The notes: generated by a model from the sequence alone, not told the origin. A stretch of 62,892 nt of DNA, filler included, from Intoshia linei (GCA_001642005.1; 6 parts of 6 records of this genome joined end to end with filler, not necessarily neighbours in it), one strand, 5' to 3'. Shown: positions 13,311 through 59,874, numbered from the whole stretch's first letter. Numbers and translations are program-made.

Positions 13311-13344
13311 TATAAATTAACATTAATATACTTATAATGATAAA

Positions 13345-15277: not shown

Positions 15278-16140
15278 CGTTAGAGAGATTGTAATTTACA
15301 AACCTATAGAAAAAGAGTAATCTTACATTACTATACTAATTAATATCTTACATTTACTAATGTTATATAATGTAAATTACATTACATAATTACTTATGAT
15401 AAGTATAGTATAAGTCACCACTGATGATGCTGTAAGTTATAGAAATTCCAATGGCATTAAAAATTAAATTGAAATACATTTTTGTATTTTTGTACATCAT
15501 ATTTTTGCGTGTCCGTTCACAATATCGTAACTCAAAAGATCGTATTTATTTTGTTTAAGTTTAAATTATATAGTTATAGTTAAATTAACTAGTTCATTTA
15601 ATTTAGACTACAGACCCAAGTTATAACTAAAATATTAAGATACCATATTATACCTACAAACCATATTACAAAAAAAATAAAAATATTCTCTAATGTGAAC
15701 ACCATAGAATATTTTTTATCCAATTCAATTTAGTATATTTAGTTTAGTTATGAAGTTTATTTTTTTACGATCATTTGATTTACGATCTTTTAATAGTGCG
15801 CCATATTTTTGTATGCAAGCACAATAATTTTTATTTCGATAAACATCAATTTAATTCGGTCGCCGATCGTGATCATCTGCTTTTATTCAATTTACATTTG
15901 TTAATTCAATACTGCTCGACATAATGCGACGTGTGACACGTGATGATGGCTTACTAATAACGAAAAACATAAGTTACATCGTATATTATCCAAATGACTA
16001 ATTGATATATATTAAGTCAATACTATTTACTAACATTCCGAATCTGATTGATAAAATTTAAATTGACAAATATGAATCAACTGATAAATATTTGTAATCA
16101 TATTGCACCGTGATACATTAAAAATAAACTTTCATTTGAT

Positions 16141-19939: not shown

Positions 19940-21350
19940 TCAAAGAAACCATTCATTGGATTGAGAATTTAGTAAATTATTATCATTATATTGTACTCGT
20001 AAATTTTGATTATTTGATAGTTTTTTTGATTCCAATAAACTATTTTGACGGAAATCGCCTTTAAGCGGTATACTGGATGAACGCTTGAAAAACTTGGATG
20101 AATCGGAATTGCATTTAGAAAAACTATTGATATTTTTAATGGTACCATTAGTGTCTACTGGAGTTTGAGTTATATGGTCAAAAATAGTGGTAATGTAATT
20201 ATCGTGTTTTTTTCTCTTGTATACTTTGATGTATATAAAAATAAATGATAAAATAATGACTATAACTAAACAAAATATTCCTAAACCTACTCCAATTTTA
20301 AAAATGAGCAATGTTTTTCGCTTTTTTTGTCGATAATAAGTACCATTAGAAATGGACATTATAATTTGAGGGTATTCGGGTACTGCTTTGGTTGATTTAA
20401 AATTATTGTTTTCATAGTATAAATCCTTTATACGTATATTTACATTGGTATCAGCAGACGTTATAGGAGTCTTGGTAGTATTTGTGGTGTATTTTTTTGT
20501 TATATTGACAGTTGTTGAAAATGATGTCACATTCCTAATATTTTAATTAAAAATTTGACGTGTATATATTATATTAAGATATTTAAAAATATAAAATAAA
20601 TAAATGTACCCAGTATTGAAAAGTTTACTAGTAAACGTAATCATGCTGACAATTTTGGTGGGTTTGTTGCTTTTTTTAGAACAATTGTTTATTTTCACAT
20701 TTAAATCCGTAAATATACACGGTTGAATGTTTTTAACAATGGGAAATTTTTCTTGAATCTAAAATAAGATACATGACTCGTTTCATTATTTAACCTTGCC
20801 AAAAAGCACAACGTAAATTCCACATATTGATATTAACGTAGGTAGCATTCGTATTTGTCAAAATTTAAATGAATTTTGCAATGTAATCAATTAAATACAC
20901 CATTAACGTTGATAAATGATTCTTTTTAGACATGCACAATACAACTTATGAAAGTGGCGGTTTTACATTCGTAATTTTAAAAACATAAATCGTATTCAAC
21001 GAAAAGAACACAGGAAACAAGCTCAAAGTCAGCTAATGCATCCTGTATATTAATCGATAGGCATTCGTACTACAATTAATTGTACAATAGGCTATAATAT
21101 TTTAATAAACCTACATACTCTGTATATTGTTACTATGTTTGCTTTTACAAAATTCATGGGACAAGTACAGTACTGAATTTTACAAAATCAATGTTATTCC
21201 AATATACTCGATTAAAACATAGTTAATAAGTTTAATTTTACTGCAATTACGCATCGGTGTGAAATGGCACATTTTCGAATTTGATCAATAATTTTTATTC
21301 CTTTCGATTGCTACCAATTTTTTCACATTTACATGTCGTTAAATTGTTTC
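19940..21350 (-). CDS. Unknown single-pass membrane protein (Cys-containing ectodomain, Thr-rich stalk); 5' extent uncertain
   Basis: 196-aa terminal ORF with a TM segment (IGVGLGIFCLVIVIILSFIFIYI) followed by KVYKRKK; upstream Cys-containing exon-like segments with GT-AG boundaries. Confidence 0.55.
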
Positions 21351-32700: not shown

Positions 32701-35700
32701 CATTTCATTTTATTCTATATTCCTTTGTGAATTTCTAATTGTGAATACAATGATATTTCATTAATTTAAGAATTCATTTTTCTTTTATATGAAAATGCTC
32801 AGGTAATTTTTGACTTTTATATTTGTTAACATGTGTGTGGTAATTTGTAGTATTTGCAGTTAATGAGGATTCGTTTTTATGTATTTGAGAATGTACACAT
32901 TTCATGGATAAGTCGTAGAATGTACATATCTCATGGATAAGTCGTACAGTATACAATATTTAATTTAATCTGTACTACAGATTAACGTAACAAGGCAGGA
33001 TATATTATTAAGATTAAAAATAATCCTTAATAATAAAATAGTTAAGATTAAAAATAATTAATTTAATTTATTAAATATAAAATTTATAACTGGAANNNNN
33101 NNNNNNNNNNNNNNNNNNNNNNNNNNNNNNNNNNNNNNNTTAATTAATTAANNNNNNNNNNNNNNNNNNNNNNNNNNNNNNNNNNNNNNNNNNNNTCATA
33201 TCCTAGCATCGGAGAAAAGGCTATCAGAATGCTGTTGCCTTTTGTATCAGCGTATTTATGTGAGTGTGGATTTTCGACTCTTTTGGATATAAAAAATTAA
33301 AAAAGAAGTAGATTAATAGTTGAAGATGATTTACGTGGTGCTCTTTTTACGACTCAGCCGCGTATTTTAGAATTAACTAAAAAAAATCTTAAAATTCTCA
33401 CTAATATTTTTTGTAAATACTATTTTAATATTATTAATACATTTTAAATAACTGTTAGTTTTATAGAAAATTCTCAATTTCTAATGGACAGAATTTAAAT
33501 GGGGTGCGTGAAAAAATGTAATGGCTCAAGGGGGGAATGAGAAAAAATAAGTTGAGAATCACTGGTCTAGGGAAACAAAAATGTGGATTTCTTCAGAAGG
33601 AATTAATGTTTTACAGTGGCCAGCCTGCTCTCCTGATTTAAACCACATTGAAAATCTCTGGGGTATAATTTTGAGAAGCATATATTGCGAAGGTAAACAA
33701 TATTCAGATCTTAAAGAAGCTATTATCGTCGCATGCAATGACATCGGTCATGATACTATAAATTTTATGATAAAATATGAATTCTAGATTGTTTGAAGTA
33801 ATTTATGGAAAGGGATGTGTAACTAGATATTAAATAAAAATTAGCAATTTCTCGTAATCCTAAATATATTTTTTACTCTAAATCGTTGTTATAAAGCATT
33901 TTTGTCTACTATTAATTCAAATCTTATTTATTAGAAAAAGTTTTTTATTTTATATTTTTTTCTTTTACCATGTTTTAAATCCAAATTTAGATGTTAATAA
34001 GAGAAATTAGCGAATTATAAGTATTATAAGTCCTTTTTCGACAAAATATATGATGTGATTTATAATATTGTCCGGCAGTATATAACAAATTGAATGTGTA
34101 AATTAATTTACTCAATTTTTAACTTATGTGTATATTTTTCTAGTTTTATTATAATTGGTGTGAATTGTGTGATGTCAACAAATATCTATCTGTGATTTAT
34201 ACAATCAAAAAATATAAATATATTGGCGATTTGGATGTCAATTTTGCTTTGATTAATGCTGATAAAAGTGAAAATTTGATTAACCATCTTCAAATGATTA
34301 ATTTTCCTAAAGTTAAATAGTAAATTTATTTAAATTGTAGTATTGCGATGTTAACTATTTTACTGTCTGTGTATTCTATACTATACACAAGATAATTTTG
34401 AAAAACTATTCTTTTATTTTTCATACATTTTCACATAGGTAATTTAAAAATAATACAAATTTCAGACGTGTGGTGATAGTACATAAAATTGCATCAGACA
34501 GTGAAAGGGTTAAGATAGCTTAATCAACATTACTGTTATTCCAACTTTGGAACATTAAATATCATACTTATTATTATATGATATTACTAGCTTTACTTTT
34601 GTGTACTTCGAACAGACAGCATCCTAGCTTTGCCGAGAACAAACTTTTTTAATTCTACCAAAAAAATAAATTCAATAATAAAATATTAATTAAAAATACT
34701 ATTTACTATTATCAATCCTTTAAAGGAGTGGTTCCTAAACTTGAATTAAACATTACCAATTAATTTAAAATCAATTATTAATTATTCTTATGTAAATTTA
34801 TTTGGTTAACATTTTTGTAAAGAATTTCAAAAACAACTTTGTGATGCCATTTGTTTAATTTAAAAGAGAATGAGTATAATCATAAAAATAAAGTAAAAAC
34901 AGTAAATCCTAAAAATTGTCATAAATGGCTTAAATTCCAGAAAAAATAAAATTGTAAATAAACCGATATATAAACAATCAATAAACTTGACTTTAACTTC
35001 ATCATAAATATACATCAACAGTGAGCCATAGTGATGATAATAAACATCACTAGACCTCCCTGTCAAGAATATAATATACTAAGAAAAGAAGGAGGTTTGA
35101 TTTTTCGCATCGATTTTGTTGCTTGTGTAAAAGTGGTTTATTAGAAATAAAAATTTGAGCATAATAAACAGGGCTCTTTTGAACTTTAGAGTCATAATTA
35201 CGTTTCACTCTCCTGGTATGTTGGGCTTTATCCAGTTTCAAATTTATCAGACAGAATGTGTATAATATTAAAAATAAAGTAAAAACAGTCCAACCTAAAA
35301 ATTGTCATAAATAGCATAAATTCCAGAAAAAATAAAATTATAAAAACCTATTTTGTTATTTGAATGTGATGATTAGAGTCGAAATTTTATTGACTTAAAA
35401 ATTCGGTGATAATGCTGATGTTATTGACTTTATAAAATTGGTAGCCTGTAATTTTGCACGAAATTTTAAATGCTAAAAAGTAGTTTTTAAGTCAAAATTT
35501 TGCTTTGATAGTGCTAATTTTTAAATGCAATAAATGTACGCATTTAAATTTCATGTAAGCACTTATGCAAAATTTGCACTAAAAAATTTATTTTTTACAT
35601 AATAAAAATTATGAATGCAATAACTAAGTTTCACTTATGTGATTTAAGTTTATTTTATATAATTTTATTACTACTTCATATAAAATTAAAATTTAATGCA

Positions 35701-37440
35701 AAAAAACGATTATCCGATATTGAAAAAGTGCAATATTTCTGCACTGAATATCCATCCGAATTTACTATAATAGAAACCAAATTATTTTGCAATATATGTA
35801 GTAAACTTATTAAATGCGAAAAAAAATTACACGTGGATTCTCATAGAAAATCTAACACACATAATGCAATAAATGAGTAATTTTTTTATATCAATAATAC
35901 ATTAAATCATAGATTAAGGAGTAGAAATTGTAGCACTGATGGCTGTAACCCTTATTCTAGAATTATCTGTTTTCCTGAATAGTAACATTGTTCACCCGAT
36001 GGAATATTACACTCAATAAGTTGCATTCTGAAGACATGAAGCTATTTTTTGACGCATTAAAATTATATTATTTTAAATTTTTTAATGTCAGTAATAAAAT
36101 TATTTTGTCAGTATATACTGTATAGTCATTATGATCTATGAATGGCTCTAATAATTAAATTAGAATCCGACGATTATATTTTTTGACAACTAAATACAAT
36201 TATTGAGAATATATTATTGTAAATATCAATTAGAAATATATTAATAAATATTTAGTATAAAGAATAATAATCATTATGATTACCCGATATCGGAGATAAC
36301 ATCACATAAATTGATTGATTTTATTTATTCATGCGATATGTAAGTAGTTTTCTATACAATTTAATAATGTTAGAGTTCGATTTTGTATTATACCACAGAG
36401 ATGTAATCGTTGTTTATGCTTTTTGGAAGTTCATCTTTATACTTAAATTTATCCTTTAAAAGTTCAATTTATACTAGATAGGGGTTAATTAAGTACATTG
36501 TGGATGAGTTATTCACAGATACCATAGATTTATTTCGTAATAATAATAATTACGAAAGTACATTTTTAAATGTGAAAGTGGACCTGTGCTTTTGTTATTA
36601 TATATGAAAAAACATTATTGTGTCAATTTAGAAGGTATTTCTCATGTCGTACGGTTTATTTTATTTTCTAAAATTTGATCAGAAAGTTATATATAAATTC
36701 ATTTGTTTTGGGTAGATTGATTGATAGTTACAATTTTATATTACACATTTAAAATAAAAATCAAAAAGAGTTAAATCGAGTGGTTACATAGACTTCGAAA
36801 TTAATTATATTTTTCACTGAATTTCGAATTTAACCGGCAATGGAACATTTACAGATATATCAAGTGGACAATCCTGTTGTAATTAGACATTTGGAGCTCA
36901 ATTTCGTCAGTATCATCACTAAATAATACATTTCACATAAGATATACTTATCATACGCTTGATCATCACTCTTTGGAGTTATATTTTAATGACTTTATTA
37001 AATAGGAATTCGTTATTAAATCTATAATTACAATTGTGATGAAAATGTTCGTTTTTAAATTTTTATTTATTTAGAGATGATGTGAAAGTGATTGATAATT
37101 TACAGGCTATTAAGAAATGTTATCCTGTTCAATGTTTTGTTAAAATTAACATCGCTAATTCCATTGATCAATTCAATATGTACTTCAACGGTGAATACTC
37201 ATCCTACAACATGGAAAATGTCAGTTTTTGTAAAATACATATTAATATTAATTTATTTAGAATGTTTACATTCAAAAATTTAAAAAACACAAATCAATTG
37301 GAAAATTTTTCATTTATGTTGATAGGTCTTATGAGCCACATCTATCAATGTCGAACAAATATATTAAATATATGGTAATTTTTTATTAATTTTCATTATT
37401 TCAAAAAAATAATTGCACAGTCCAACGTGATATAGATACC
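26790..37440 (+). CDS. Scattered exon-like segments of one or more uncharacterised Cys-containing proteins
   Basis: Open segments with AG/GT boundaries near 26.8-27.2, 31.4, 34.15-34.3 and 36.1-37.4 kb (e.g. [16 protein letters not shown]; [13 protein letters not shown]); no recognised family and exon linkage unproven. Confidence 0.3.
28834..29130. repeat. Cluster of (a)tactgaca motifs in both orientations, probably transposon subterminal repeats
   Basis: gtcagtatt twice, then about six tactgaca copies; a related motif occurs at ~36087-36120. Confidence 0.5.
29190..29760 (-). mobile_element. Helitron A internal fragment
   Basis: Reverse complement of much of ~13395-14125. Confidence 0.7.
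33196..33563 (+). mobile_element. hAT Buster 3' end (dimerisation-domain remnant and TIR)
   Basis: [45 protein letters not shown]; TIR ...gttgagaatcactg. Confidence 0.8.
33570..33835 (+). mobile_element. Tc1 transposase C-terminal fragment
   Basis: [18 protein letters not shown] motif. Confidence 0.85.
34857..35344. repeat. ~100-bp direct duplication flanking a ~280-bp unidentified insert
   Basis: ~34857-34958 matches ~35241-35344; an uninterrupted single-copy version of the same repeat lies at ~28620-28755. Confidence 0.7.
35611..35880 (+). mobile_element. CGGBP1-like/hAT BED-finger transposase N-terminal remnant
   Basis: EYPSEF...[27 protein letters not shown]. Confidence 0.6.
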
Positions 37441-37639
37441 TAAAACGGCTAGGGAATTGACGCTACAAAGCTCTATAATTACGCATATTTACTTCATAAT
37501 TAATTTTTGGGTGTATTAACTCAACTAACTGAATATATAAATGGATAATATTTATTTACGTATATCTATTGCAAAACCACTAAACATATAATTAACGTGA
37601 CAAACAGGTTACAATAATGTGAAAATTCGATCAATACGC

Positions 37640-38060
37640 CACTGGGCGTGATTACTCCCATTTTACAAGTTCTAATTAAACTGCAACTTCATCCATTGAA
37701 CTCACTGCGTGGATACCCACGATAACTTAGCGACTATTTTATATTATTCAACTGCAAGGACAAACTTTGGACACCAAGGTGCGACTACTCAATCCTGGTA
37801 TTTTTAACGACATTTTATGCCGATAAGTTTAATCACCTTTGGGTAAATTCTTTTGACTATGAGCTTTAGGACGTTTAGGTGCACAACTAGAAACTAATTT
37901 CTTCAACTTCAAAGGGCATTAGTAAGATATATGAGCATATCTACCACAACTCAAACATTTATTTTGGTATTTAAACTTAACATTACTCTACATGGGCTCT
38001 TGAGGTATATTACCTTGTAACATGATCAACGCCTCTGCTCTTTTAACGACTACCTACATT
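37640..38060 (-). mobile_element. Ty3/gypsy gag-protease remnant
   Basis: VVKRAEAL...KCLSCGRYAHISY*C (CX2CX4HX4C knuckle) followed by a degenerate aspartic-protease-like segment (GLSSRTLV); internal stops. Confidence 0.65.
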
Positions 38061-38329
38061 GTTATTCTATATTTATACGTTCCCACCACGTATATTGATG
38101 AAAAATAAATTTATATTTATGAGAAACTCTGTATATACATTAGTGTGCCACACACATTTGAATTTTAATTGCGCGTAGTGAAAATTCGTGGCTCTTAAGC
38201 AATATATTTACTATTTTGTTTTTAAAATTAACTAAAATGACCTGCTTGATCCGCAGGCTTTAATCAACGTTTTACAAAATTTGGAACTAATAAACATCAG
38301 TTCAAACTATTTTACATGGTTACCACCTC

Positions 38330-38690
38330 TCATGGTTAATTTAATTTTAAATTTCCTGGATCAAGGCGTCCGCGATCAACACGAGGTATGGAAATTCTAA
38401 CACAGTCTTTCTTTTGACCCGAGGATTTTATTTCCCTTCTCAATCATTTTAATTGACTGAATTTATTGATTTTTTTTCTGGTCATATTTCTTTTAAAATT
38501 TAATTGGTATTATTCTTCTAATTTATCTTCCATTTGATTTCAATATCATTGTTCACCAATAAATCCTCTTTATCAAATATTAACGGTAACACTTCTTGCG
38601 GTAAGGCACTAGATGACAATTCTAATGTAGCTGGTCACCAAATTACTTCGTCATTTGACTGATTTAGACTATTCAATTTGTTTAAGGAAA
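38330..38690 (-). mobile_element. KRBA2/Ginger-like integrase-type transposase remnant
   Basis: PATLELSSSALPQEVLPLIFDKEDL and DCVRISIPRVDRGRLDPGNL. Confidence 0.65.
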
Positions 38691-38929
38691 ACAATGTATT
38701 ATTCCTTTTTTTTTATTTACAGTTGTTAACTATGCTTCCAAAAATATTGAGGCTTTAGTAGTGTTCATTAGAATGTAACATATGGTATACTCTCTTTGTT
38801 TCGAAATAATGTTTACATTTCCAAATTTTATATTATCATTGAAAAACATTTATAAATACTATTGAAACTAGTTTTAACATTTATTAAACAAATTACGTTT
38901 TATTTAAGATAAGAAGTCTTCTATTTTAC

Positions 38930-39240
38930 AGGGTATGCTTATCAATATTTTGCCGAGCCGTAAGGATCACTTTTGGTTTGCTAGCTAGGGATACTGGTAG
39001 AGTACCATTGTTGCGAAGCCTTGCTTTGCCGATATGCGGTAGCTTATACTCATTTTCTCCTTTCGCAAGCATTGTCTCCTCCATACATTGCTGAAGCGTT
39101 AAAAATACATTGTCCAGCTTATCTGGTGTAGATCATTAAAAGCATTACTTACGAAGCTAATTAGTTCGTCAATGGTTTTCGGAGAATAGTGATGTTGAAC
39201 GGATTGGATGGCGTTGAAGAACCAGGCGTATTAGATTGTA
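38930..39240 (-). mobile_element. Mariner-like (DD39D-type) transposase C-terminal remnant
   Basis: FFNAIQSVQHHYSPKTIDELISFVSNAF/LDNVFLTLQQCMEETMLAKGENEYKLPHIGKARLRNNGTLP. Confidence 0.75.
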
Positions 39241-39716
39241 ATCTATCAAAGAAAATTAATAAAACTAATAAAATTAATCGGAAAGGTTTATTCCAATTTT
39301 AAACATTATTTCGGAACAGAGGTATATGTTTTGTTACATACATATATGTATATAAAATATATATTATTTTTGGTTACAAATTTGAGATATGTGGCTAAAT
39401 TACTTCTACATGTGTATGTTATGAATCAACAAATATATTATATAAGAATGTTTTATTGATTTCTTCAATTTTGAACGTCTTTTCTTACGTCCGAATGGTA
39501 TAAATGTCATAATTATGGAGCAAAATCTTGCTACATTAACAGTCAGTAAATTTTCGTACACTTTGATTACTATTAAATTTTAAAATAAAGTTTGGTTCAC
39601 GCGCCATATCTTAAGAAGCGAAATATAGCAGCTCCGATTAATGATTATACGCTTAATTCGACAAAAACTTAGTTGCGACAGTACGCTGGTTGTCGTAACT
39701 AATGCGTGGATATTTC

Positions 39717-40090
39717 CTATGTGTTGGAGTAGTCTTGCCATACAAATACACCTTCATACACAATAAAGATCAAAAGTTGAATTTGTATGGTTGCCGCAAA
39801 GACAGAGTATAATACCCTCAACGCGTCATAAAACAAACCTGATACTACAGTAACCATAAATTGTACTATCCCTTTTGAAAGATTCCAAAGTGGGAAGAGT
39901 ACACCCGCCACACCATGAGTGCATATTAGGATGACATAATTATGTGCCATACCTAATATCACTATAATCCATCTTAATAATGTTAAGACGAGATCCATGA
40001 TAACATGGACCAATACGTTATACTACCATTACCAAACCAAACACAAGCCGATTCAATAAAATTAGAATGATAGCGCCCAAACTATCAACC
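39717..40090 (-). other. Unidentified hydrophobic intronless ORF fragment, candidate foreign insert
   Basis: 98-aa ORF, visibly more GC-rich than its flanks, same strand as neighbouring remnants; no recognised motif. Confidence 0.3.
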
Positions 40091-40626
40091 AACAATATTA
40101 AATAATCAGATATCAATTTCCGAGTGATACCATTAAATAGTCCCAATAATAAACTCTGTACCATGTAGAAAAAGATAAAAATAAATATGAAATGCTACAT
40201 TGATATTATACAATGATACATTGTATATTATTTTATTATAATTAATTATAAAGCGTGCCAAAAAATGAAACAGTTTTAAAGTTTTTCAAATACCACACTA
40301 CGTATGAAATAATGCATGAAACAATAGTTATAAATCACATGACTCAGTGATTGTACGTAAAAATTAACATGTTGATATATAAACACTAAATTAAAAAATT
40401 TACCGCCTGATTGAAGGAATGATTGAAGTAGATATTTGCAATAGAAATGCATTCACTATTTATAGACCAATTGTTTTCAATCTTCCAATAAGAACCCTAA
40501 TTTTTTTTTAAAATAAATACAAATTAAATAAATTTTGACAATAAACATTCACAATACAATTTTTTGGAAAATAAAAATTTAATAATGAAAAGTCAAAACA
40601 AATTTTGAAGGTTGCGTATCTCAACT

Positions 40627-40687
40627 AGCTCACCCTGATACTTAGCAAATGTTTATTTTGTTTTTGAACATATCTCGATGATGATTT
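40627..40687. repeat. 61-bp direct repeat DR-A, copy 1
   Basis: agctcaccctgatacttag...catatctcgatgatgattt; 3 mismatches to 41208-41268. Confidence 0.9.
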
Positions 40688-40699
40688 CTCTTTCGCCGA

Positions 40700-41135
40700 T
40701 TCTGGTGTTGGTGTAACCGATAGTTATCAAGACATTTTTGTTTAAAACGATTCTCAGCCTGTTGACTATCTCTTTAAATATGGGGAGAAATATAAGTTTA
40801 TGAAACTTTTGCTGGCATTAATCGCCTGGCCTTTTGGCACATTATTGTGATAACTACCGTCTACAGTGCATTTTACAGCTTTCTTCAAAGCTAATTCATA
40901 GTTGTTGTTATGTAAGTCATCAATTTCCGATTTTAATAATTTGTTCAATCTTGACTCGTTTAACTTCTTTAGGCATAGATCTATGCTTGTTTTTGATGTC
41001 ATGATCGGTTTAAACTGGAATCCCATGAGCGTGTCTCGATGTTCTGTCTTAGCATATTTCTCAAAAAATGCTTCGACACACGTGTTTGTGAATATCTTTG
41101 CAGGCCACTTGTTTTGCAATATAGAAACGTTAAAG
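40700..41135 (-). pseudogene. Endogenous viral element: hepe/virga-like (Alsuviricetes) RdRp N-terminal/motif F fragment
   Basis: LALKKAVKC...PKGQAINASKSFINLYFSPYLKR*STG*ESFLNKNVLIT resembles KxGQGISAWSKxxxxxFGPWFRxxE..LxPNV of hepe-like RdRps. Confidence 0.65.
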
Positions 41136-41207
41136 GTATATAACTATTATTCACTTATATATAGTTAACTTGAGTGTGTTTTTTTGCATGCAAAGTATTG
41201 TCTAATA

Positions 41208-41268
41208 AGCTCACCCTGATACTTAGTAAATGTTTTTTTTGTTTTTGAACATATCTCGATGAGGATTT
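41208..41268. repeat. 61-bp direct repeat DR-A, copy 2
   Basis: Matches 40627-40687. Confidence 0.9.
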
Positions 41269-41303
41269 ATTTTGTTGTCCCTGAAAAGAAAATTGAATTG
41301 TAG

Positions 41304-41570
41304 TCAAAGAAATAAGCAATTATGGTTCACAAGCACAATTGGGACAGTTTCAAAGGTTGTAGTTGTTAAAAGGGCCAAGGTACGATGACATGAAAATTTT
41401 TCATAGAGTGAAAGGTAGTTAGATCTTAATAGGGTTGCAACTTCATCAACTGGTTTACGTGTATTTGGAATGATTTCAGTTTCCGGAATAGTTACTTTGT
41501 CAGTGCCAATGTATGGTAATACACCAGGAGTCTTAACTGTCGAAGTAATAACGTTTTTGTTCTTGTTAAC
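41304..41570 (-). other. Unidentified coding fragment, possibly a picorna-like RdRp N-terminus
   Basis: GVLPYIGTDKVTIPETEIIPNTRKPVDEVATLL...LYEKFS; weak resemblance only, more GC-rich than host DNA. Confidence 0.3.
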
Positions 41571-41759
41571 ATATATTATCAATTTATAATTTAATCTTTT
41601 CATCACTTTAACGACAGATTGAAACCATGTAAGAATTGATATAATAAGAGTGAAAACAAAGCTTGTACTGCAATAACGTATATTCGCGTTATACATTTGT
41701 ATGTTGTAGTTTATTTTTAAGGTAGTTAATAATAAGTTGTTGCAACATATATTCAGGAG

Positions 41760-42090
41760 TGTACAAAATTGGTAGAGCTTCCAACATTACCATTTGGTAT
41801 GCAGCAGAATTCATGTTACCATTCACTTTAATGATATATCTGCTACCATCAGATCGAATACCACCATGCCCATACCATAATTGAAGGTTAAAACTTAACG
41901 GTAGGAGTGATATATTTTGAATTGAATCTACAATTTTTGGTCTTCTGACATATGATTTTGAATTAGGATATAAATGTATTTTAGCTTCATCTTAGAAAAT
42001 AATTTTATTCAATCGGATTTAGTCTAATCATGCCTCATTCTACACCAACGATTTCGTTTATCATATGATTTATTATCAATTTTGCTTTTT
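41760..42090 (-). mobile_element. Tc1 transposase middle fragment
   Basis: IIF*DEAKIHL...YVRRP...YITPTVKF*PSIMVW...IIKVNGNMNSAAYQ. Confidence 0.8.
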
Positions 42091-42433
42091 GTGCAGAAAT
42101 AATTAATTATATTACGTTTATGTTATTTTGACTTAAAAAAAAATTTTAATAATTACTGATGAAATTTTGAATATAAAATAGAGAGAAAAAAATATTTTTT
42201 TGTTATAAATTAGACCCATTTTAATTTTTTCCGCAGGCAGGTAAGATTATTGTCAATAGAAATGACGATTTGAATAAATAATATAAACATAATGGCAAGG
42301 TTACACACAATGTTATAAATCTTACTTATGAAAACTATTTCTTTTGATCAGGCCGATGTTTTTTTAAAATTTAGACTTAACGAATGGTACCACCTGTAGT
42401 AATTTCGTCGAAATGGAAAACAATACCAATATG

Positions 42434-42560
42434 GATAGATCAATTTCTATATTATAACAGAAAATAATACTAAGTTTGTTATTTAACGATATTAAGATTT
42501 GTTGCTTTGATTCAAACTTTATGCTGTGTTCTAGAATAAAGGTGATGATAAATAAATAAA
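42434..42560. repeat. Direct repeat DR-B part 1, copy 1 (127 bp)
   Basis: About 9 mismatches to 44641-44767. Confidence 0.9.
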
Positions 42561-43713
42561 ATTCACTAGAAACATACCCAGCATAAGATTGTTCTTTAGC
42601 AGCTTTAGCGCAATGTAAACCAACAATACACAATTTATTATTAACAGTAGCTATGACGGGAGCAGTACAATCTACTGGTACAGTACAAGCATTGTACGAG
42701 ACACAATCATCAGCAGTATAGATAGAAGGCATATTCTTAGTAATTATTACAACAGATGCAGTACTGAAAGAAATATTTGTAGCAGATTTCACCATGTGAG
42801 TCAAAACTGTACCAATATTAACGGCTGCAAATACAAATCCATCGTAATTAAAATCCTGTATGCTATCAGATATAAAAGACTTAACAATATTAGAAAATCA
42901 TCTAATCCGTCGATTGGCTTTAACAGTATTTAATTCAACTTTATAAAGATGATTCTTTGAACACAACACGTGATCAACTTCTCCTAATGTAAAATTGAAG
43001 GAAATACCAATTGGAAAGACAGCACATAATTTGTCAAAAGTACTGGCAACTACATGTTCTACAAAAAGGATAATATGATCACAGGATAATAATAGCTAAT
43101 ACATTAATATTTCCATGAGGAGCAGTCAAAATTCCAACATTGGGGCGGATATTGTGCATTAACAGTTTTATGAAGATAATTGCTTCTATAGATTGTCCGA
43201 GGGCCTCTTATTCTGCGCGTTGAATAATTAGTAGGGATTTCTCCTGAGCCTTCAGTTTGTCCGATAGCAGTTACTTTATGATAAGCAAGCTAAGTTTTTA
43301 AAGCTATACCTGCAAGAGCTAACAGCGTCACGAAAAAGATTTTTGCATAAAAATAAAGCTCTTTTCTAAGAGTGTTTTTAAATACTTTCTCACATTGCTG
43401 GGTAAATATACCAGTAACACCCACTTTAATCCTATAAAGAAAATCTTTAATCCGACTATAATAACCTGTAGCAATTTCTGGTAGTTTATCCAAATATCTC
43501 TTCACTTAATATAAACACTTTCCAAATACAAGACAAAGAATTCTTTCCGGCTCATAATTCGCGGTGGTTCACCACATTTTATATATTTGGTGATAATACA
43601 ATTATTATCAACATAAAATAAATCTCCTTGGCAGGTCCTAAAGAAAAGGTTGTACAAATCTTTACTTCTATCGCACACATGTGCGTCAGCTATTACAAAA
43701 GTGTGAGGTTGAA
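42561..43713 (-). pseudogene. Endogenous viral element: picorna-like polyprotein fragment (3A-like TM, VPg-like, 3C-like protease)
   Basis: Hydrophobic FFVTLLALAGIALK, then short GQTEGSGEIPTNYSTRR, LFVEHVV, FSNIVKSFIS and YNACTVPVDCTAPVIATVNNKLCIVGLHCA (decayed GDCG...IVGxH); stops and frameshifts, no introns. Confidence 0.75.
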
Positions 43714-43745
43714 AGTTTATATGGATATATGAAATATACTACACC
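43714..43745. repeat. Direct repeat DR-B part 2, copy 1 (32 bp)
   Basis: agtttatatggatatatgaaatatactacacc, identical to 44774-44805. Confidence 0.9.
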
Positions 43746-43748
43746 TCC

Positions 43749-44640
43749 CCGATTAAGATAATACATAATCTTGAAAGTGTTAGAGTGGCTGAGTTTCGCG
43801 TTTGGTTTTGAAATGTTCGGTTGCACTTTGAGCATTTTATCAGTATTATTATCTTTAACAGTCTAAAATTAATGGCACGAGGCCTAAAATTTCACCTCTA
43901 AATGTGACCCTTCGAGGTGAAATTTGTAGTTCACCGGTTTTAATTGGTGGGATGTGCAAATCACCTTCGTCTATTCTATTCTCTCATAAGTGGCTATTTC
44001 AGCCAATGATATACCTGAATTCAAAATGAAGGTATCACGTATTACATCAACATCTTTCTGTGGCCAAGGATGACGGCATCTTCATTTTTCATCTTTGGAC
44101 ATTGAGTCGTCTGAAGGTTTATACAATTTCAAGACGGTCGTACACCATTTTGATAATAGAGGTGTTAGAAGGTCAGTAACAAAATAACCTTTAGCTTTAT
44201 TAGCTAATCCAACATGATAATCTATACTCTTTAGAATATATGTCAGTTTGGCCAAACAACGCAATGGATATTGAACACTGTCAGATGTGTGCCATGGATC
44301 GCAAAAAATATTTCCGTAGTAAGGTAAGTGTTGGCCAGGACTGTCGTATGTCATCTTAATTGTCAAACCTAGTTTTGTTGATGTTAATTTAGTGGGTCCA
44401 GAGAAAGTCTTATGGTTGCGTTTTACGTCGATGTTTACCCCATCGTCGCCACAATAGATACCTAGTATATCTCGTGCTTCAGAGACGTTTAGCCTAAGTC
44501 TCGATACGCAGCGTAAGAAGCAAATGCGTTAATCAGAGTGTTTTCATCAGTAAGTTGTAAGTGGAGATCCTGAGAGACGTGAGGATCCTGTTCGATATTT
44601 AACGCCGAATCGTGTGACGGCAGGAGCATCTAACTTATTT
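43749..44640 (-). pseudogene. Endogenous viral element: noda-like RdRp (motifs B-E and thumb)
   Basis: APAVTRFGVKYRTGSSRLSGSPLTT/DENTLINAF...LGIYCGDDG...LGLTIK...IFCDPWHTSDSVQYPLRCLAKL...KAKGYFVTDLLTPLLSKWC...HPWPQ; frameshifted. Confidence 0.9.
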
Positions 44641-44805
44641 GATAGATCAATTTCTTTTTTATAACAGAAAATAATATGAAGTTTGTAATTTAACGATAAT
44701 AAGATTTGTTGCTTTGATTTAAACTTTATTCTGTGTTCTAGAATAAAGGTGATGAAAAATAAATAAAGTATATAGTTTATATGGATATATGAAATATACT
44801 ACACC
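44641..44805. repeat. Direct repeat DR-B, intact copy (part 1 + gtatat + part 2)
   Basis: Contiguous version of 42434-42560 plus 43714-43745. Confidence 0.9.
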
Positions 44806-44921
44806 ACCGTTCTTAGAATTTTTTTCTCATCGTGTATAACCCTGTATTTTTATTTTTAAAAAAATATTAACACCCTAATGTATATACAACTATTATTGTA
44901 GCTATTATATTATTTTGATAG

Positions 44922-45768: not shown

Positions 45769-47081
45769 ACTATGCGAAATGAATGATAATTTGATATTTA
45801 ACAACTATAATTATAAATATTTGTTTATTAATTGTTATAAGTATAAATATTGAATTTATATACGATTTTATTTTTTTTTCGATGTGTTGGTTCAATTCTT
45901 ATTTATTTTCTTTACTGCAATAAATAGTCAAATAATAAAATGACCCTTTTCTTGTTTTATTAAAGTATTGTTGTCTAATGACCAGTATATCATTATGTTA
46001 ATTTAACGCCGTCTGGGTGGATCATAATTGAATATTATATGCTATAATTACTAAAAATTGAGTCCACTTGATAATCTCATCAATATATTATATCGGAACT
46101 GTTTATGATGTCAGCAGGGTATTATTTTTGAAAGGATTCAAATATATCAGTATGATTCCTGGTATATTATTGTCCACAGTAGTGAGTTGAACATTACTTT
46201 TTTAGAAACTCTATAAAATTTTTTTTAAAAATCAATAAGGACTTTATTTCAATTTTACTAAAACTAACTAAGAATAGTATAATACTGTAATTTTTTAATT
46301 ATTTAATTTATACAAATTTAAACAATGGCAATATAAACAAACAATGTTATCAATATTTTCAACTAAATGCCAAGTATGACAAACGGTTCGACATTTATTA
46401 CAATAAGTGTAAAGTTCTATAAAATATAATGATATTAATACTTATTATAAATAATTTACCTTTAATGTTTGTTTCACATATAATACACATTAAATTTTTA
46501 GTAAAATTTTGTTTCTTAACTAATGCACACGATTTAGGATAGTTATCTAATAAATAAATTGAGATTCAATTAACGATAAAACATACTTATAAAATGTAGT
46601 AGACTTGTGGCCTGATTGATGAAACCACTAGAACGTAAAATGTCAGAATAAAGATACACATAAAATTCCACCTTTGCGTTCAATTCCCAAGATAATATTC
46701 TAAACTGATTTAAAAGATTAGCTGTTTTTATATTGATACCTTTTTATAAATGTTTTTTCAATGTACATATTCATAAAAATGTATGGTTTGGGGAATATAT
46801 CTAAATAAAAAGTATCCAGTGTTTAAATTGGCAATCATTTTAAATGGTGACATATTAATATACCTTTATGATTTGATATCTAAAAATAACAAATTGATCA
46901 GTTGATTAAAAAAATTACATTGTACAAAGCATTTTTTATTAAAAAAAATATTGGAGACATTGCAACAAATGTTTCTATCTTGTTTTTACTTACAAAATAT
47001 TCCAAACTATAATTAATGATTCAAACCAATGTAACAATTTTATTATTAAAATTTGAAATAATAAATTATATCTATCATCAC

Positions 47082-52884: not shown

Positions 52885-53528
52885 AGTCAACCCTCTTTAA
52901 GATGAACGTAATATGATAAAGTATAATGTGAATTTCTCCAATAATAAACAAAAACAAAAATTTGTTATGTTATATTTTGTTTAATATGAAAAAAGTAAAT
53001 GAATCGTGAACATTCTACTACGTGAACGATGAACATGATTTATCCAAATTAAAGTAAAGTTCTTATTGTTATTCACATTTATTGTATACAAAACGTGCTT
53101 TTCAAAAATTTTTTATTTCTGCAACATGAACAAAGAAAATTTAAAAAAAAGAAGAAAAGATTTAGCTACATCTACAAAGAAAGAACTAATTCGTTTGTTT
53201 GATGAAGACAAAGGTAGTATACAACGTTTTCTTGCTTCAAAACACAATGTATACAATAAACATTGGAAAAAAAATACATATGAAGAAAAATAAATAATAT
53301 CTGAACTTGAAGGCCCAGAAATCTTACCATTTACCCATTATGAAGCTAATTATCATACTAAAAACTTAAAAACAATTTTGATGATTCATAACCCAGAAAA
53401 AGTATACAGTGTATGGACTTTAATGTAGAAAATAAAGTCTGAAAAATTGGCAAGATCATCAAAAATAACTGATTCTTTGGTTCTACTAAAGAAAGAAAAA
53501 AATGAATTGATATAATTATTATAATAAT
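52885..53528 (+). mobile_element. pogo/Tigger-like non-autonomous element, cut by a gap
   Basis: TA-cagtcaaccctct TIR; KKRRKDLATSTKKELIRLFD HTH remnant; reverse complement of ~57025-57642. Confidence 0.75.
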
Positions 53529-53628
53529 NNNNNNNNNNNNNNNNNNNNNNNNNNNNNNNNNNNNNNNNNNNNTTAATTAATTAANNNNNNNNNNNNNNNN
53601 NNNNNNNNNNNNNNNNNNNNNNNNNNNN

Positions 53629-54100
53629 TGAATGGTCGTATGTAATTTCACTTTAAAGGCTTCAATTTTTCCTGAATCTGCAGATGAACTTTCACCCGAG
53701 CATTTTTTAAATTTGAGCCCATGTCTGTCTTTAAATTTGTAAAGCCAACCATAGCTAGCCTTAAAGACTGTTCCAGGGTAGAATTGATTGTGGAAAAATT
53801 TGACTTTCTCAATGATAATATCGTCATTTGTTGGGATTTTGGAAAAACGTCGATCAATGAATCAATAAAACAATGATTCTTCTAGTTTTGGGAAAAAGGG
53901 CTGTTTCATGGATTTTTTAATTTTATTGTTTGTACAGAATCCATATTTTCCAACGTTGAGTAATTTCTATTTATTTTTTTTAATTGAATAAATTGTGGAA
54001 ATTGCAGTTTTATACATTGTGCATAATTCCGTTGGTTTAATGCCGTTTTCCAATTCTTTGAGAATTTGCAATTTTTCATCAATAGTTAAATTCATTTAGT
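53629..54100 (-). mobile_element. pogo/Tigger transposase N-terminus (psq and CENP-B HTH)
   Basis: MNLTIDEKLQILKELENG...ISTIYSIKKNK; ASYGWLYKFKDRHGLKFKKCSGESSSAD. Confidence 0.8.
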
Positions 54101-54451
54101 TAAATCAGTTAAAAATTGTAATTGGTAAGTTGTAAATATAAAAAAGGAATTTTAATTGATAAAGAAAATAAAGTTAGATATGTAACAGCATTAAGATAAT
54201 GTACAAAATAATAAACTTAATAAAAAACTAAGTAATGTTCAATTTACAATAAACTTATACATTATTTTTAATTAGGAATACAAACTTAATTTTTATTTTT
54301 AATTGTACAAACACTTGATTTTCACCAGTAATGTACAAAAAGTACTTGTTAATACAAATTCATGCTCAAATTTTAATAAAAAGTTCAGTTTGTAATCTGT
54401 AAACCTGTTGTCAGTAAAGTCCTCAGAATTATATAAGTTTATGTTCTAAAT

Positions 54452-56722
54452 CGGGGACGTCACCACTTTTAGTCAATCGACCCCCAAAATTTTTTTCTAA
54501 TCTAAATTCATTCTTATTAAAAAAATGACTTATTAGCGTTATTATTTAAATTTTGTGAGTTATTTTAATTGGTTGAGATGAAATAGTTCGCCAACAAATA
54601 GATTTTTTGATATTAATTATTTAATCTAATATTAACACAATTATAATACAATTCACTGTATAAGTTGAATCTAAAATTGTTATATTACATATGAATTTTT
54701 AATTACTTTGAATCTTCTTTGATGTTGGTTATGAAGCTAAAATAAATAATATTATATTTTTATATTTAAAGTAATATGAACCTAATTTTTAATTTGAAAT
54801 ATGATGATTAATATTTTCTGTGATATTAGGTTTTAAATTTGTCAATTTTAGACGCAGATTTCCTCTATTTTTTATATTAAGTCTATTTTTTCGTTTCGTT
54901 AATAATTGATTAATATGACTAAATCCAGCCTCCACCATGTATGACGAAGGAAACGCTAACAATAAAGGAGAATCAAATTTACCAGTTTTAGGATATTTAA
55001 GTTATTTCAATAAGATAAATTATTTTGTTTGAAAATTGATTGTAGTGGCAGGTCAACAGACATTTCAATTAATTCATCACGTAATTCGGAATCTAAAATA
55101 TCGTAGTTTGTAATATTAAACGGATTAACAACCCAATCAGGTATCGACATTTTTTCTAGATCTCTAAATCTAATCTTAAAGTCATCAATTAAATTATTTA
55201 AATGATTTGTGTAAGTTTCCAACTCTTTATTAGTTATCTCATCTTGTACTGACAATAGCCGAGAAATACTGATAATCTTTTCTGTTGAGCACCGACAACA
55301 TGCACCCCGAACTTATTTTAAAACCCATAAGAATCGTTCGACATTCTAAAATTGTTGCATTTTTTGAATGACATTAAATTTTGCATACAAATCAGACAGA
55401 TAATATAAATTGTGTTTATTATTAATTAATGTTTCACAGAGGGAAGGTTCATATATTTCTAGAAAAGTTACAGTTGAGTGGAATAATTCAACAAGTCTCC
55501 CTAAACAATTTCCCTTGGACAACCATCTTATCTCTGTGTGTAGAAGTAAATTTATGTATTGTTCATCGTTTTCTTTACACAACAGAGAGAATAATCGACT
55601 GTTTATTGGTCTGCTTTTAATTTTGTTAATAACTTTTACGAAAATATTTAATGAATCGTTCAATGTACTACTTAAATTTTTAGCTACAAGGTGATTTCTA
55701 TATATCACGCAATGAATTGAGCAAACGTTGGGGTTTTTTTCTTTCAATAATGAAGCAAACCCTCTGTACTGTCCAACCATTAACGGAGCACCATCTGTCG
55801 CAACTGCACATATATTTTCAATGGGTATATCATTTATAATAAAATATTGTTCAACAGTATTAAATATCGTTATTCCCCTTGAATCACTAGATAAGTATTT
55901 TGCAAATAAAAATTCGTCGATTATTTGTTGTTTGGACTTACTGTTTGGAAGTACCTTACATATGACATCAATATATTCTCACCTCCAGAAATAGATTCAT
56001 CCAGTTGAAGAGAAAATTTGCAAGTTTTTAATTCTTTTATTAAATTTTTTCAACATTATCAACCATTTGGTCAATACGTCTGTTAACATTTGAAGAACTT
56101 AACGTAAGGTGCTTTATAACATTGGTAACGACTTCTTTTAAAGCAGGTAATATTAAATTTTCAGCAATATTATTAGGTTTACCATTTTTAGCAATTAATA
56201 AAGATATATTGTAGGACGCATTTAATCCACAAATAGGTTTTGTAACTGCAAGGTTTTAAAAAATTTGGAATTTTGTTTAAGGTTTCATACTCAGTTTTTA
56301 ATATTTTGAAATAATCAGCATTTTTTTCACATTTATCTGGATGGAATCGATACAAGTGATCTATTATCTTAGAAGACTTCATAGCATCATTGCTTAATAT
56401 TTTTTTGTATAATAAGCACATTGGATTAGATGGAGAGGTTATGAATCCCATATTCAAATATGGTTGATAATATTGGCGACATTTTTTTTTGCAGTTGACA
56501 TCAGAATAATTTACAATTAATTCAAATAAATTTACAAAAAAAATTAATGAATCTTTATATATACAATAAAAAATTGAGAAGTATACTTAACATATATTAT
56601 TCATTATTTACTCATACATTTCGTTGGTGATATTACATAATATAATATTTTATATTTAATTGACCCCCAAAGAGTTAAAATTGACCCCTCGGGGTCGAAT
56701 CAACTCCCTATGACGCCCCCTG
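54452..56722 (-). mobile_element. Full-span decayed hAT Buster transposon
   Basis: TIRs and perfect 8-bp TSD ttctaaat (54444-54451, 56723-56730); FSLQLDES, ATDGAP.MVG, IHCVIYRNHL, HTEIRWLSKG and FPSSYMVEAGFS motifs. Confidence 0.92.
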
Positions 56723-56839
56723 TTCTAAATTGAAGTTAAATTAGGATTTGAAACACAGCATAGCTCCTATAATAGAGAAATTGAATGGTGTGACATAAAT
56801 TTTGAATAACGAAAAAATGACGTTATTTTGATTATTATA

Positions 56840-57642
56840 CAGTCAACCCTCTACTAAGTGAACATTTGGGACTCGAATATTTAAGTGTTCATGATTGTAG
56901 AAATTGTGAACAAAAAATTTATTGACATAGTAACAGTAAAATTAAAGTTGATATTATAACAATTCACAAAAAAATATATAACTTATTTATTAATTTTACA
57001 TTTTATAAAGAAAACTAAATAAACATTATTATAATTGTATCAATTCATTTTTTTCTTTCTTTAGTAGAACCAAAGTAATCAGTTATTTTTAATGATCTTG
57101 CCAATTTTTCAGACTTTATTTCCTGCATTAAAGTCCATACACTAAATAATTTTTCTGGATTATGAATCATAAAAAATGTTTCTAATTTTTTAGTATGATA
57201 ATTAGTTTCATAATGGGTAACATGTAAGATTTCTGGGTATTCAAGTTCAGACATTATTTGATTTTCTTCATATGTATTTTTTTCAATGGTTATTGTATAC
57301 ATTGTGTTTTGAAGCAAGTAAACGTTGTGTACTACCTTTGTCTTCATCAAACAAACGAATTAGTTCTTTCTTTGTAAATGCAGTTAAATATTTTTTTTTT
57401 TTAAATTTTCTTTGTTCATGTTGCAGAAATAAAAAATTTTGGAAAAGCACGTTTTGTATACAATAATTGTGAATAACAATAAGAACTTCACTTTAATTTG
57501 GATAAATCATGTTCATCGTTTACGTAGTAGAATGTTCACGATTTATTTACTTTTTTCATAGTAAACTATAACAAATTTTTTTTGTTGTTCATTATTGGAG
57601 AAGTTCACGTTATAGAGGGTTCATCTTATAGAGGTTTGACTG
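56840..57642 (-). mobile_element. pogo/Tigger-like non-autonomous element, complete
   Basis: TA-cagtcaaccctct ... agaggtttgactg-TA. Confidence 0.8.
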
Positions 57643-59874
57643 TATGTAAAATTAATTCGATTTATATTTTTAATAGTTTAAATTAATAACAACAAATTAT
57701 TTAAACAATGTTATTATTATTGTAACTCACCTACTTGTAATATTGGATTTATGAAATTTAGAACCAGCCTAAATAACAACAATTTCAGAGTCAACAATAT
57801 TTTTGCTGTATTTTTTAACTCAAATAATATCAGTTTTTTTTTAAATGAAATTTATATGAAGTATTAAAGATTTTATTTTTCCTAGCATACTAGCTGTCGT
57901 TGACTGTAAATAAATTTAAATATTTATTAAAGCTTAATCGAAATCAATGAACTGTTTAAATCTTTTATATTACAATATCTAATTAATTTTATATTATTTT
58001 TCTATCTTGCTAAAATATTCCCATATTTTAGTTTGTTTTTTTTTATTAGCGATTTGAATGTGAATCTTTGTTTCAATAGAATAAATATCATTTACAGCAT
58101 TAGGACAAATTTTTGTTGTCATTATTTTAATTTCTTTAAGTAAAATTAAATACTTTGAATATTGTGAATAAGTTATTTCTTCTGAAAATTCGCTATTATC
58201 TATATTTGACTTTTCGTTACTGTTTTCTATTAAAAATTCTTCCATTTCATCTTTCAAGTTAGTATCATTGATTTTTTCAAATTTTTTTAAACCAGATATA
58301 TCAATAACGTCGTAATTGTACGAGCTTAGTTCATCTAANNNNNNNNNNNNNNNNNNNNNNNNNNNNNNNNNNNNNNNNNNNNTTAATTAATTAANNNNNN
58401 NNNNNNNNNNNNNNNNNNNNNNNNNNNNNNNNNNNNNNATTTAGCTATTGGGGAGAATTTTGTGTTAATGATAAGTAAATAAACACAAATAAAATAATCT
58501 ATTTTTTCAAACCAAAATAAAACATTAAACTCTAATTAAATATATCAGAAAGTCTCAATCTATTTTACTCTTTGGATCTCTTTTAATTTTTTTATTTATC
58601 ATGGACCAACTATCGAAAAATCATTTTTTTAAAATAAAGGTAAATTTGATTTTATAAAGAATTAGGTTGACTGTTGTGTAATACGTACGTATGTAAATTA
58701 ATTTTAATTCTAAAAAGTGACACTAAAAACTATTAACTAAAAACTACAGTACTCGAAAAAATCTCATTTTCCCAAATATTTTCATTTAAAAATATTGTAT
58801 TTATCCATGTCATTCAACTATTTTGTATCTCAAATATAAACGGTAAAGTCCAAATCTTTTGAGAGATTGCTAAGGCCTATTTTTGACTTACAAAAAGTCT
58901 CAATGCATAGTAGATTTGCTATAATGTCAATGGTACGCTATTTAATAAATTTACATTCTTATAAACCAGGGATCGGCAACCAGTGAACCACAGAATAATT
59001 TTGGTGTCCTTTGAGTAAATATGTAAATTATTTATTTTTAAATTTTTAAACACCTTTAAACATTTTCTAATACAATTGCCTCATTATAATCATTTTAATA
59101 CTGAATTTTCAGATTGCCTTGAATTTTATTTTGTTGAATATACTAGAACCGTTACTATTCAGTTAAAATTAACATGTATCATGTGTAAATTTTCAAAAAC
59201 GGGGCCTGTAAAATATATTGATATAAATACTGGGCCACGACATGAAAAATATGTTCGCAGTATGTATACTTACATAACCTTGTGAACATTTCATAATTTT
59301 GAAAGCATGAACCCAAATTCTTTGTAAATGCTGATATTTACATTTTATTTTAAGAATTAAAGTTTAATATATTCTTTTTGAATGTCACATAAATAAGGAG
59401 AAACTAGTAACCAATCATTGTTTCACAGAAATGATATATATTTTATTTTTTTTTTTTTTCAAAAAAAAATGTAAAAGTAACAGTAACGTATATCCCGTTT
59501 CAACCCTTTACCACGAGACAATCATTACAATAGTAAAGTTTGGGGATTCATTTGAATAAAAAATGTTTCCATAAAATTTTTCAAATGCACCTCAGTTTGA
59601 GAACGAACTTTGAAAGGACAAAACTGTGAAAAAATAAAATGTAAATAAATTAAAATTTACCATCATTGAATGCTGACGATTGTCAAATTTATAATCTTCA
59701 GTTTCATATATGATAGATTTATCAGCATTACCATACCCTCCAAATTTTTTGTTGTCTGAATTTAATACAACTTTNNNNNNNNNNNNNNNNNNNNNNNNNN
59801 NNNNNNNNNNNNNNNNNNTTAATTAATTAANNNNNNNNNNNNNNNNNNNNNNNNNNNNNNNNNNNNNNNNNNNN

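Follow-up and report, generated by a model that had tools for sequence, protein, structure and literature searches.

To our knowledge, small-RNA loci rich in endogenous viral elements (EVEs) are known almost only from arthropods. The flamenco locus of Drosophila carries antisense fragments of transposable elements (TEs) on a long Pol II transcript; it is non-coding, about 180 kb in length, dominated by gypsy, single-stranded and Piwi-dependent. A block of foreign pieces resembling such loci is located at positions 37640 to 44805 of a 62,892-nt stretch of DNA (hereafter the window) from the orthonectid Intoshia linei (GCA_001642005.1). Like flamenco, it holds antisense TE fragments in a transcribed locus, but it is intronic, 7.5 kb long and spliced on both strands. 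The block is integrated in host DNA and occupies one intron of a plus-strand gene, its pieces share the minus strand as coding strand, one of them is a chimera of a long terminal repeat (LTR) element and a virus with a target-site duplication, and spliced contigs imply transcription of both strands. A tentative interpretation, held at somewhat less than even confidence, is that the block acts as a genic trap in an expressed host gene and feeds small-RNA silencing of matching invaders.

The EVE-rich PIWI-interacting RNA (piRNA) clusters of Aedes aegypti likewise hold fragments of several RNA-virus families among TE fragments in one orientation, and the EVEs there share the polarity of the LTR elements in 543 of 614 cases, which was read as copy-choice recombination (10.1101/127498). 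Those clusters are described as longer than 50 kb, LTR-dense and the source of measured antisense piRNAs, whereas the block of I. linei is short, intronic, includes a host exon, is spliced on both strands and is known from DNA and contigs. Mosquitoes also possess genic or read-through core piRNA clusters, in which host-gene transcription reads non-retroviral EVEs in antisense, as the host gene does here; these are reported to lie mostly downstream of genes and to be reached by read-through (10.1101/2022.08.22.504762), whereas the present block is intronic and partly exonised via cryptic donors. A further parallel is retrotransposon-virus chimeric DNA formed by template switching of reverse transcriptase, in which a patch of a plus-strand RNA virus is joined in sense to an LTR (PMC6638189). 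Unlike the chimeras described there, the one found here is chromosomal and has both LTRs, a polypurine tract, a 5-bp duplication, an empty site and a later second virus-like piece. Finally, endogenous retroviruses (ERVs) and LTR elements in introns tend to be antisense to the enclosing gene (PMC1794541), as the inserts are here; this bias is reported for mammalian LTR elements and needs no small RNA, and in I. linei DNA transposons and viral RNA-dependent RNA polymerase (RdRp) pieces are concerned as well. For I. linei itself, one sentence in PMC6396948 mentions a viral-type RdRP in the proteome; the passage gives no locus, orientation, LTR link or transcription, and seven supplements yielded no match. 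Beyond this sentence, no such locus or endogenous-virus report for orthonectids was found in a literature search that left most subscription journals outside.

Seven public runs from two studies contain the stretch, and five of them (X1 to X5) were compared. X1 was taken to be DNA, since it skips no introns, and X2, X3, X4 and X5 were taken to be RNA, since they skip introns with GT..AG ends. The whole cluster occupies a single intron (37375-44921, 7,547 nt) of a spliced plus-strand host gene. The corresponding joint 37373->44921 with GT..AG ends was detected in X2, X3, X4 and X5 (four of the five runs compared) and is absent from the DNA run X1. Upstream exons are located at 36256-36339, 37075-37219 and 37261-37374 (plus strand; GT..AG joints in X2, X3 and X4, none in X1), a further one ending at 34319 was recognised from splice joints, and six downstream exons lie between 44922 and 45766 (plus strand; joints and translation). 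The exons read as an open frame across the joints, with a predicted membrane-spanning segment at the end, and no Pfam match was obtained for the three exons tried. The other listed introns of the gene comprise six of 35-43 nt, in agreement with the short introns reported for I. linei (median 57 bp, PMC6543705), plus two of 735 and 1,936 nt. Since the host gene lies on the plus strand, all pieces coded on the minus strand are in antisense to its pre-mRNA. A hAT/BED-like remnant in sense orientation is found in the 1,936-nt upstream intron (35548-35877, plus strand; weak Pfam match, E 0.14), and a convergent gene with introns of 40-43 nt is located immediately downstream of the host gene (46416-46919, minus strand).

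Within the intron, an insert at 42395-44803 begins with TGTAGT, finishes with ACTACA and possesses direct LTRs with TG...CA ends. The 5-bp sequence CCACC occurs on either side of it (left copy 42390-42394, right copy 44804-44808). The repeats 42434-42560/44641-44767 and 43714-43748/44774-44808 are two copies of one 202-nt LTR; a CRISPR-like repeat-spacer array, which had been considered for the direct repeats, was dropped, as the two repeats concerned (R2 and R3) are halves of this LTR. On the minus strand the insert consists of the 5' LTR (44641-44803, without its last 39 nt), a noda-like RdRp, about 130-230 nt of further sequence, the seven purines GGGGAGG (43744-43750), which abut the 3' LTR and presumably represent the polypurine tract, and the 3' LTR itself (42395-43743; 202 nt if intact, 43714-43743 plus 42395-42560). 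The latter is interrupted by a picorna-like sequence of 1,153 nt standing in place of 6 nt of the LTR. The LTR pair differs at 9 of 157 positions. A primer-binding site and the gag-pol interior are missing from the insert, and the noda-like sequence directly follows the truncated 5' LTR; judged from its sequence, the insert is a non-autonomous LTR remnant.

LTR ends plus a duplication turn up somewhere in 80 of 300 shuffles, so that this pattern is weak alone. The target duplication is strengthened by its coincidence with an empty-site joint (42388->44803, six shared letters), which was found in X2 and X4 and in diverged versions in X1. The flanks of this site are multi-copy in X1, and for this reason the empty site is not claimed as an allele; the joints are probably derived from other copies of the target repeat. 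The arrangement suggests that reverse transcriptase jumped to a viral RNA template, returned, and yielded a product that then integrated. Chimeras of this type reportedly exist for the mouse intracisternal A-particle with lymphocytic choriomeningitis virus and for Drosophila with Flock House virus. Had it been acquired near the LTR start while reverse transcription was under way, an insert should occur in both LTR copies. Since only the 3' LTR carries the picorna-like piece, this piece appears to be a separate, later event. The reverse transcriptase was likely provided by LTR elements, as LTRs make up 1.3% of the I. linei genome and long interspersed nuclear elements 0.02% (PMC7943196).

In total, the intron contains pieces of two, probably three, RNA viruses. 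The noda-like RdRp fragment (43974-44640, minus strand, possibly reaching about 43870) covers motifs B-C onward and adjoins the 5' LTR directly. It matched PDB entry 8fm9 with an E-value of 2e-16 and could be aligned to all six IMG/VR loci compared (33-43% identity), one of which has a nodavirus methyltransferase domain. A noda-like RNA virus contig (L002, 490-4318) was seen to encode an S-domain capsid and an extra open reading frame (ORF) of 330 amino acids belonging to no family. The second piece, a virga/hepe-like RdRp fragment (40653-41143, minus strand), is flanked by 61-nt direct repeats with three differences (40627-40687 and 41208-41268) and matched Pfam RdRP_2 at 40766-41143 (E 5e-12) and 40653-40817 (E 8e-4). 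No sequence relatives of this piece were found, and the PDB search returned S100 noise alone. The picorna-like fragment (42561-43713, minus strand) has a weak 3C end, its upstream part being read by eye. The match to Pfam C3 (E 0.0022) falls short of the curated cut-off, 13 of 14 PDB matches are 3C-like proteases, each of them weak (E 0.26-0.99), a single-sequence fold reached a pLDDT (predicted local distance difference test) of 28.8, and the search for sequence relatives gave none; this piece is probably, though short of proof, a picorna-like 3C.

The viral pieces bear stops and frameshifts, and each was recovered from X1 in one contig at 85% likeness. Their junctions with host DNA are crossed by contigs from two studies (X1; X2 contigs of 1,924 and 2,332 nt), and spliced contigs connect viral sequence with a host exon. 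None of 21 plus-strand frames of the block matched Pfam, no Rfam match was obtained in 33200-53500, and no RNA-virus piece was recognised among 33 ORFs scanned outside the block (ORF-level scan).

Several transposon pieces are found beside the viral ones. The DD39D mariner (38790-39325, coding part 38929-39224, minus strand) is internally deleted and has retained both terminal inverted repeats (TIRs; 38794-38820 and 39295-39321, 27 nt, 85% complementary) with TA flanks. Its coding remnant is 82% identical to 2 of 29 candidate proteins; the D-39-D spacing was counted by eye on the relative, the window copy beginning after the last D. The 82% relatives come from ENA and Logan assemblies, which might reflect a horizontal transfer in the recent past, or else samples that contain this same lineage. 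A Tc1 transposase fragment (41737-42009, minus strand) found one relative among 37 candidates, a protein carrying Tc3/DDE_3 domains (E 1.8e-5), and no match in PDB. Two further pieces, which we take to be a gypsy-like gag-pro remnant (37640-38100, minus strand; CCHC knuckle seen by eye) and a KRBA2/Ginger-like integrase C-terminus (38300-38730, minus strand), carry putative labels that rest on motifs and were confirmed by no tool: neither matched Pfam, the weak PDB nucleocapsid matches of the former are mixed with cathepsins, and the single KRBA2-like metagenome match was rejected as an antisense frame of a bacterial gene. The gypsy-like piece is multi-copy (X1 depth 480 at 37816 with loose ends), as is 38136-38416 in the KRBA2/Ginger-like region. 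Since the transposon pieces have further copies in X1, targets for matching guides exist.

Two minus-strand ORFs, ORF-A (41307-41690) and the hydrophobic ORF-B (39580-40194), found no relative in protein searches that included 1.84 billion representatives, and a capsid S-domain for ORF-A was rejected (E 0.23). A test of the longest ORF against shuffles was not passed by the gypsy-like piece; for ORF-A and ORF-B it is biased, since the ORFs themselves had defined their limits. A second version of the sequence lacks 39461-40203 and with it ORF-B (joint 39460->40204 in X1, X2 and X3), so the block varies. This version diverges in 40220-40365, where most of the 30 differences in one 1.6-kb contig are located; it could be an old haplotype or a second copy.

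A copy of a host forkhead exon (40404-40496, minus strand) was detected between these pieces. In a search of the 1.84 billion representatives, the frame 41786-39720 matched a single protein, P0003 (OAF71664.1), an I. linei protein with a forkhead domain (33 amino acids at 40398-40496, 67% identity). The gene model of this protein merges a forkhead and an NTF2 gene, is named after NTF2 and is probably a fused prediction. A very deep contig in X5, X2 and X4 matches 40433-40498, and its two loose ends, read by eye, each agree with P0003 at all nine residues (9 of 9 on either side). The match to P0003 makes I. linei very likely as the source of the DNA. An acceptor AG (40497-98) stands before the exon copy and a donor GT (40402-03) after it, which argues for an exon captured as DNA; reverse-transcribed mRNA was dropped as a source, both splice sites having been kept.

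Splice joints were detected on both strands of the block. Four cryptic plus-strand donors (37796, 41544 in ORF-A, 41884 in the Tc1 piece, and 44321) splice to the host acceptor, each in one of four runs, and a contig of X3 also terminates at 41544. By contig depth in X5, a crude measure, the 41884 form reached 44.7, the 41544 form 20.6 and the normal joint 75.8. In the forms that use the cryptic donors, virga-like, ORF-A and Tc1 sequence is retained in antisense as exon. On the opposite strand, the joint 39242-40404 has CT..AC ends, i.e. GT-AG of the minus strand, and was found in X5, X2 and X4 and not in X1; this splice (40404->39242) joins the forkhead donor to an acceptor inside the mariner. 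As read from the splice signals, transcription is not confined to one strand. Since the contigs are unstranded, an overlap of the mature RNAs is putative. Contigs of X5 and X3 both begin at about 40611-40614, which hints weakly at a 5' end.

With the LTR element and its noda-like piece counted once, all six tool-supported inserts are coded on the minus strand (two-sided p 0.031), and including the pieces known by motif the figure is eight of eight (p 0.008). Remnants in other parts of the window occur in either orientation (plus at 8704 and 33551, minus at 53631; with weak Pfam matches, plus at 35650 and 47628). An earlier note on this DNA, made from the sequence alone, had described a uni-strand archive of seven foreign remnants and two ORF pieces without identity. 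Its noda-like, virga/hepe-like, mariner and Tc1 remnants are borne out by homology and its picorna-like 3C weakly so, while its gypsy and KRBA2 assignments gained no support from the tools used. The common minus-strand coding, the two ORFs without relatives, the mixed orientation of TEs elsewhere, the joining of the fragments to host DNA and the plus-strand transcription antisense to the pieces all agree with the present results, the last through the spliced host gene that reads through the block. Not upheld were the absence of evident TIRs or LTRs, since the mariner has both TIRs and the noda- and picorna-like pieces lie within an LTR pair, and the view of a free-standing cluster, the block being an intron of a protein-coding gene. 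The intron, the forkhead exon and the splicing on both strands had been missed.

How a genic trap of this kind might work can be outlined as follows. The reverse transcriptase of an LTR retrotransposon would have switched template onto noda-like viral RNA, and integration of the product would have left the 5-bp duplication. The picorna-like piece would have been added later; mariner and Tc1 would have entered by transposing, the forkhead exon in the form of genomic DNA. The host promoter would then supply antisense RNA, both as pre-mRNA and as isoforms from the cryptic donors 41544, 41884 and 44321. Minus-strand RNA, perhaps driven by the LTR, may overlap the antisense copies, and the resulting double-stranded RNA would be cut by Dicer and passed to an AGO protein; if the species has Piwi, the antisense RNA might also give rise to piRNAs. 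Three PAZ-PIWI proteins (clade not given), one Dicer and no eukaryotic RdRP are reported for I. linei (PMC7943196). The Argonaute encoded in the window belongs to the AGO clade (24 of 24 PDB matches are AGO-type), so that Dicer, from the literature, and an AGO-clade Argonaute are both present; the gene lies 24 kb upstream of the block, and this nearness is not evidence. Selection for antisense guides would explain the shared polarity of the DNA transposons and of the DNA-derived exon, for which there is no mechanistic reason. In its most specific form, which we regard as unlikely, the proposal is that a heritable record of viruses and transposons is read without a classical piRNA cluster: spliced antisense viral exons would pair with opposing RNA, guides would be made by Dicer and AGO, and one LTR would have served twice as a capture site. 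In that case, an EVE-based immune memory would operate on small interfering RNAs in a reduced spiralian parasite.

Several observations weigh against a genic trap that feeds silencing. The polarity p-values are modest, post hoc and uncorrected for the choice of the locus from a scan. The run contigs are unstranded and have no RNA label on record, so that RNA status and strand both depend on the splice joints. Where it is unspliced, cover of the block runs at a depth of about 5-26, comparable in magnitude to another intron and the flanks (about 18). No matching live virus was found, the closest noda relatives showing 33-43% identity and the virga and picorna pieces having none. The host forkhead mRNA is highly expressed (depth 2,325 in X2), and guides from the captured exon would target it, which would be a cost. 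With its 7.5 kb and many DNA transposons, the block is unlike the LTR-dense Aedes loci. In mammals, moreover, the antisense bias of intronic ERVs and LTR elements has been attributed to purifying selection acting on the signals for splicing and poly(A) addition (PMC1794541), and such ordinary bias, which the earlier note had left unweighed, predicts the same orientation.

The last point leads to the alternative that survives best, and which is a real possibility although we consider it less than likely: a neutral graveyard in a long intron, a rare safe site in a compact genome, in which inserts became nested, those in sense were purged for disturbing splicing or 3'-end formation of the host, and the extra splices are noise. 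Nesting is clear: the picorna-like piece sits inside an LTR, a multi-copy repeat contains the LTR element, and an outer element with TIRs perhaps encloses the whole. Every piece is decayed, including the diverged LTR pair, and both the forkhead exon and the second version without ORF-B are compatible with gain and loss at random. With an antisense background of 80% among intronic inserts, the observed polarity would arise with a probability of 0.26 for six inserts and 0.17 for eight. Purging of sense inserts is, however, weakened as an explanation by the poly(A) signals and by the sense hAT-like remnant (weak Pfam match) tolerated in the upstream intron: AATAAA, which may not be the signal of this species, shows no depletion on the host strand (23 plus versus 20 minus in the intron, 7 versus 4 within the foreign pieces). 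The antisense inserts still provide four used cryptic donors, and with two or three mutually unrelated RNA viruses in a span of 4 kb the density is high; the ORF-level scan recognised none outside.

It is also conceivable, although rather improbable, that the block is a composite Ginger/KRBA2-like element with Pack-type cargo, whose polarity would result from its own minus-strand transcription or replication, either prior to its arrival in the intron or afterwards. Candidate TIRs at 38130-38147 (TGT...) and 44868-44885 (...ACA) match in inverted orientation at 17 of 18 nt, with 4-nt flanks agreeing at three of four positions as in a near duplication, and most of the block may lie within a single outer element, 38130-44885. 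In X1, either end as well as 42183-42439 is multi-copy, and the LTR empty site was probably contributed by such copies. Spliced minus-strand RNA and the exon captured at the DNA level fit this view as well, and the depth of the cluster contigs in X1 (17-23 for 37349-44803, versus 6-8 for flanking host contigs) could mean extra copies. The depth gap may, on the other hand, be GC bias (29-39% GC in the pieces versus 24% in the exons), and the viral pieces occur in one X1 contig each. The family label is putative and received no support from Pfam and metagenome searches, and the gypsy-like piece lies outside the TIRs with the same polarity.

A strict uni-strand piRNA cluster of the flamenco type, as the earlier note had it, would account for co-orientation and plus-strand transcription, yet it is very improbable: a minus-strand splice was found in three of four runs, the block sits in the intron of a coding gene, and Tudor genes are reported to be strongly reduced in an orthonectid (PMC12147562). 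Since single-strand transcription was looked for and splices on both strands were found, the locus, which resembles EVE-rich small-RNA clusters, is not classified as a uni-strand piRNA cluster, and its function is putative. An assembly chimera, or contamination by viral or host-animal sequence, might be suspected from the draft state of the assembly, which has five scaffold gaps in the window, and from X1 perhaps being its source data, but it can hardly be maintained, as the sequence is gap-free from 33196 to 53528, contigs of the second study cross the junctions with 0-3 differences, and the viral pieces are decayed and spliced to a host exon.

The remainder of the window (26% GC) is gene-dense, and a nucleoside transporter, Argonaute and ClpP were recognised with Pfam. 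The Argonaute gene (about 9700-13350, minus strand) encodes a long RG/RGG-rich N-terminus, and its 3' part enters a scaffold gap at 9326. The nucleoside transporter region includes a fold-back (6235-6799) with arms of 251 nt, 88% complementary, and a loop of 63 nt. ClpP is located at 16114-19024 (plus strand), followed by an exon of a single-pass membrane protein (19943-20542, minus strand); the sequence at 634-897 (plus strand), which had no Pfam match, is presumably the C-terminus of a PP2A-family phosphatase, according to a motif. Long inverted arms (175-207 nt, 90-96%) surround pogo-like and hAT-like ORFs at 52979-57566; this is probably a single large TIR element that harbours nested inserts. 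The five gaps measure 100 nt each (9227-9326, 33096-33195, 53529-53628, 58339-58438 and 59775-59874); in the two inspected, an artificial-looking 12-nt linker, TTAATTAATTAA, lies between runs of N, and the gaps generate the top repeat family of the window.

Whatever the function of the locus, the LTR-virus chimera with its duplication and empty site provides a clear chromosomal record of the germ-line entry of an RNA virus other than a retrovirus, and two captures at one LTR are recorded. Noda-like, virga/hepe-like and probably picorna-like viruses are thereby recorded for the orthonectid phylum. The intron offers a candidate EVE-rich small-RNA locus in a spiralian parasite with a genome of 42 Mb.

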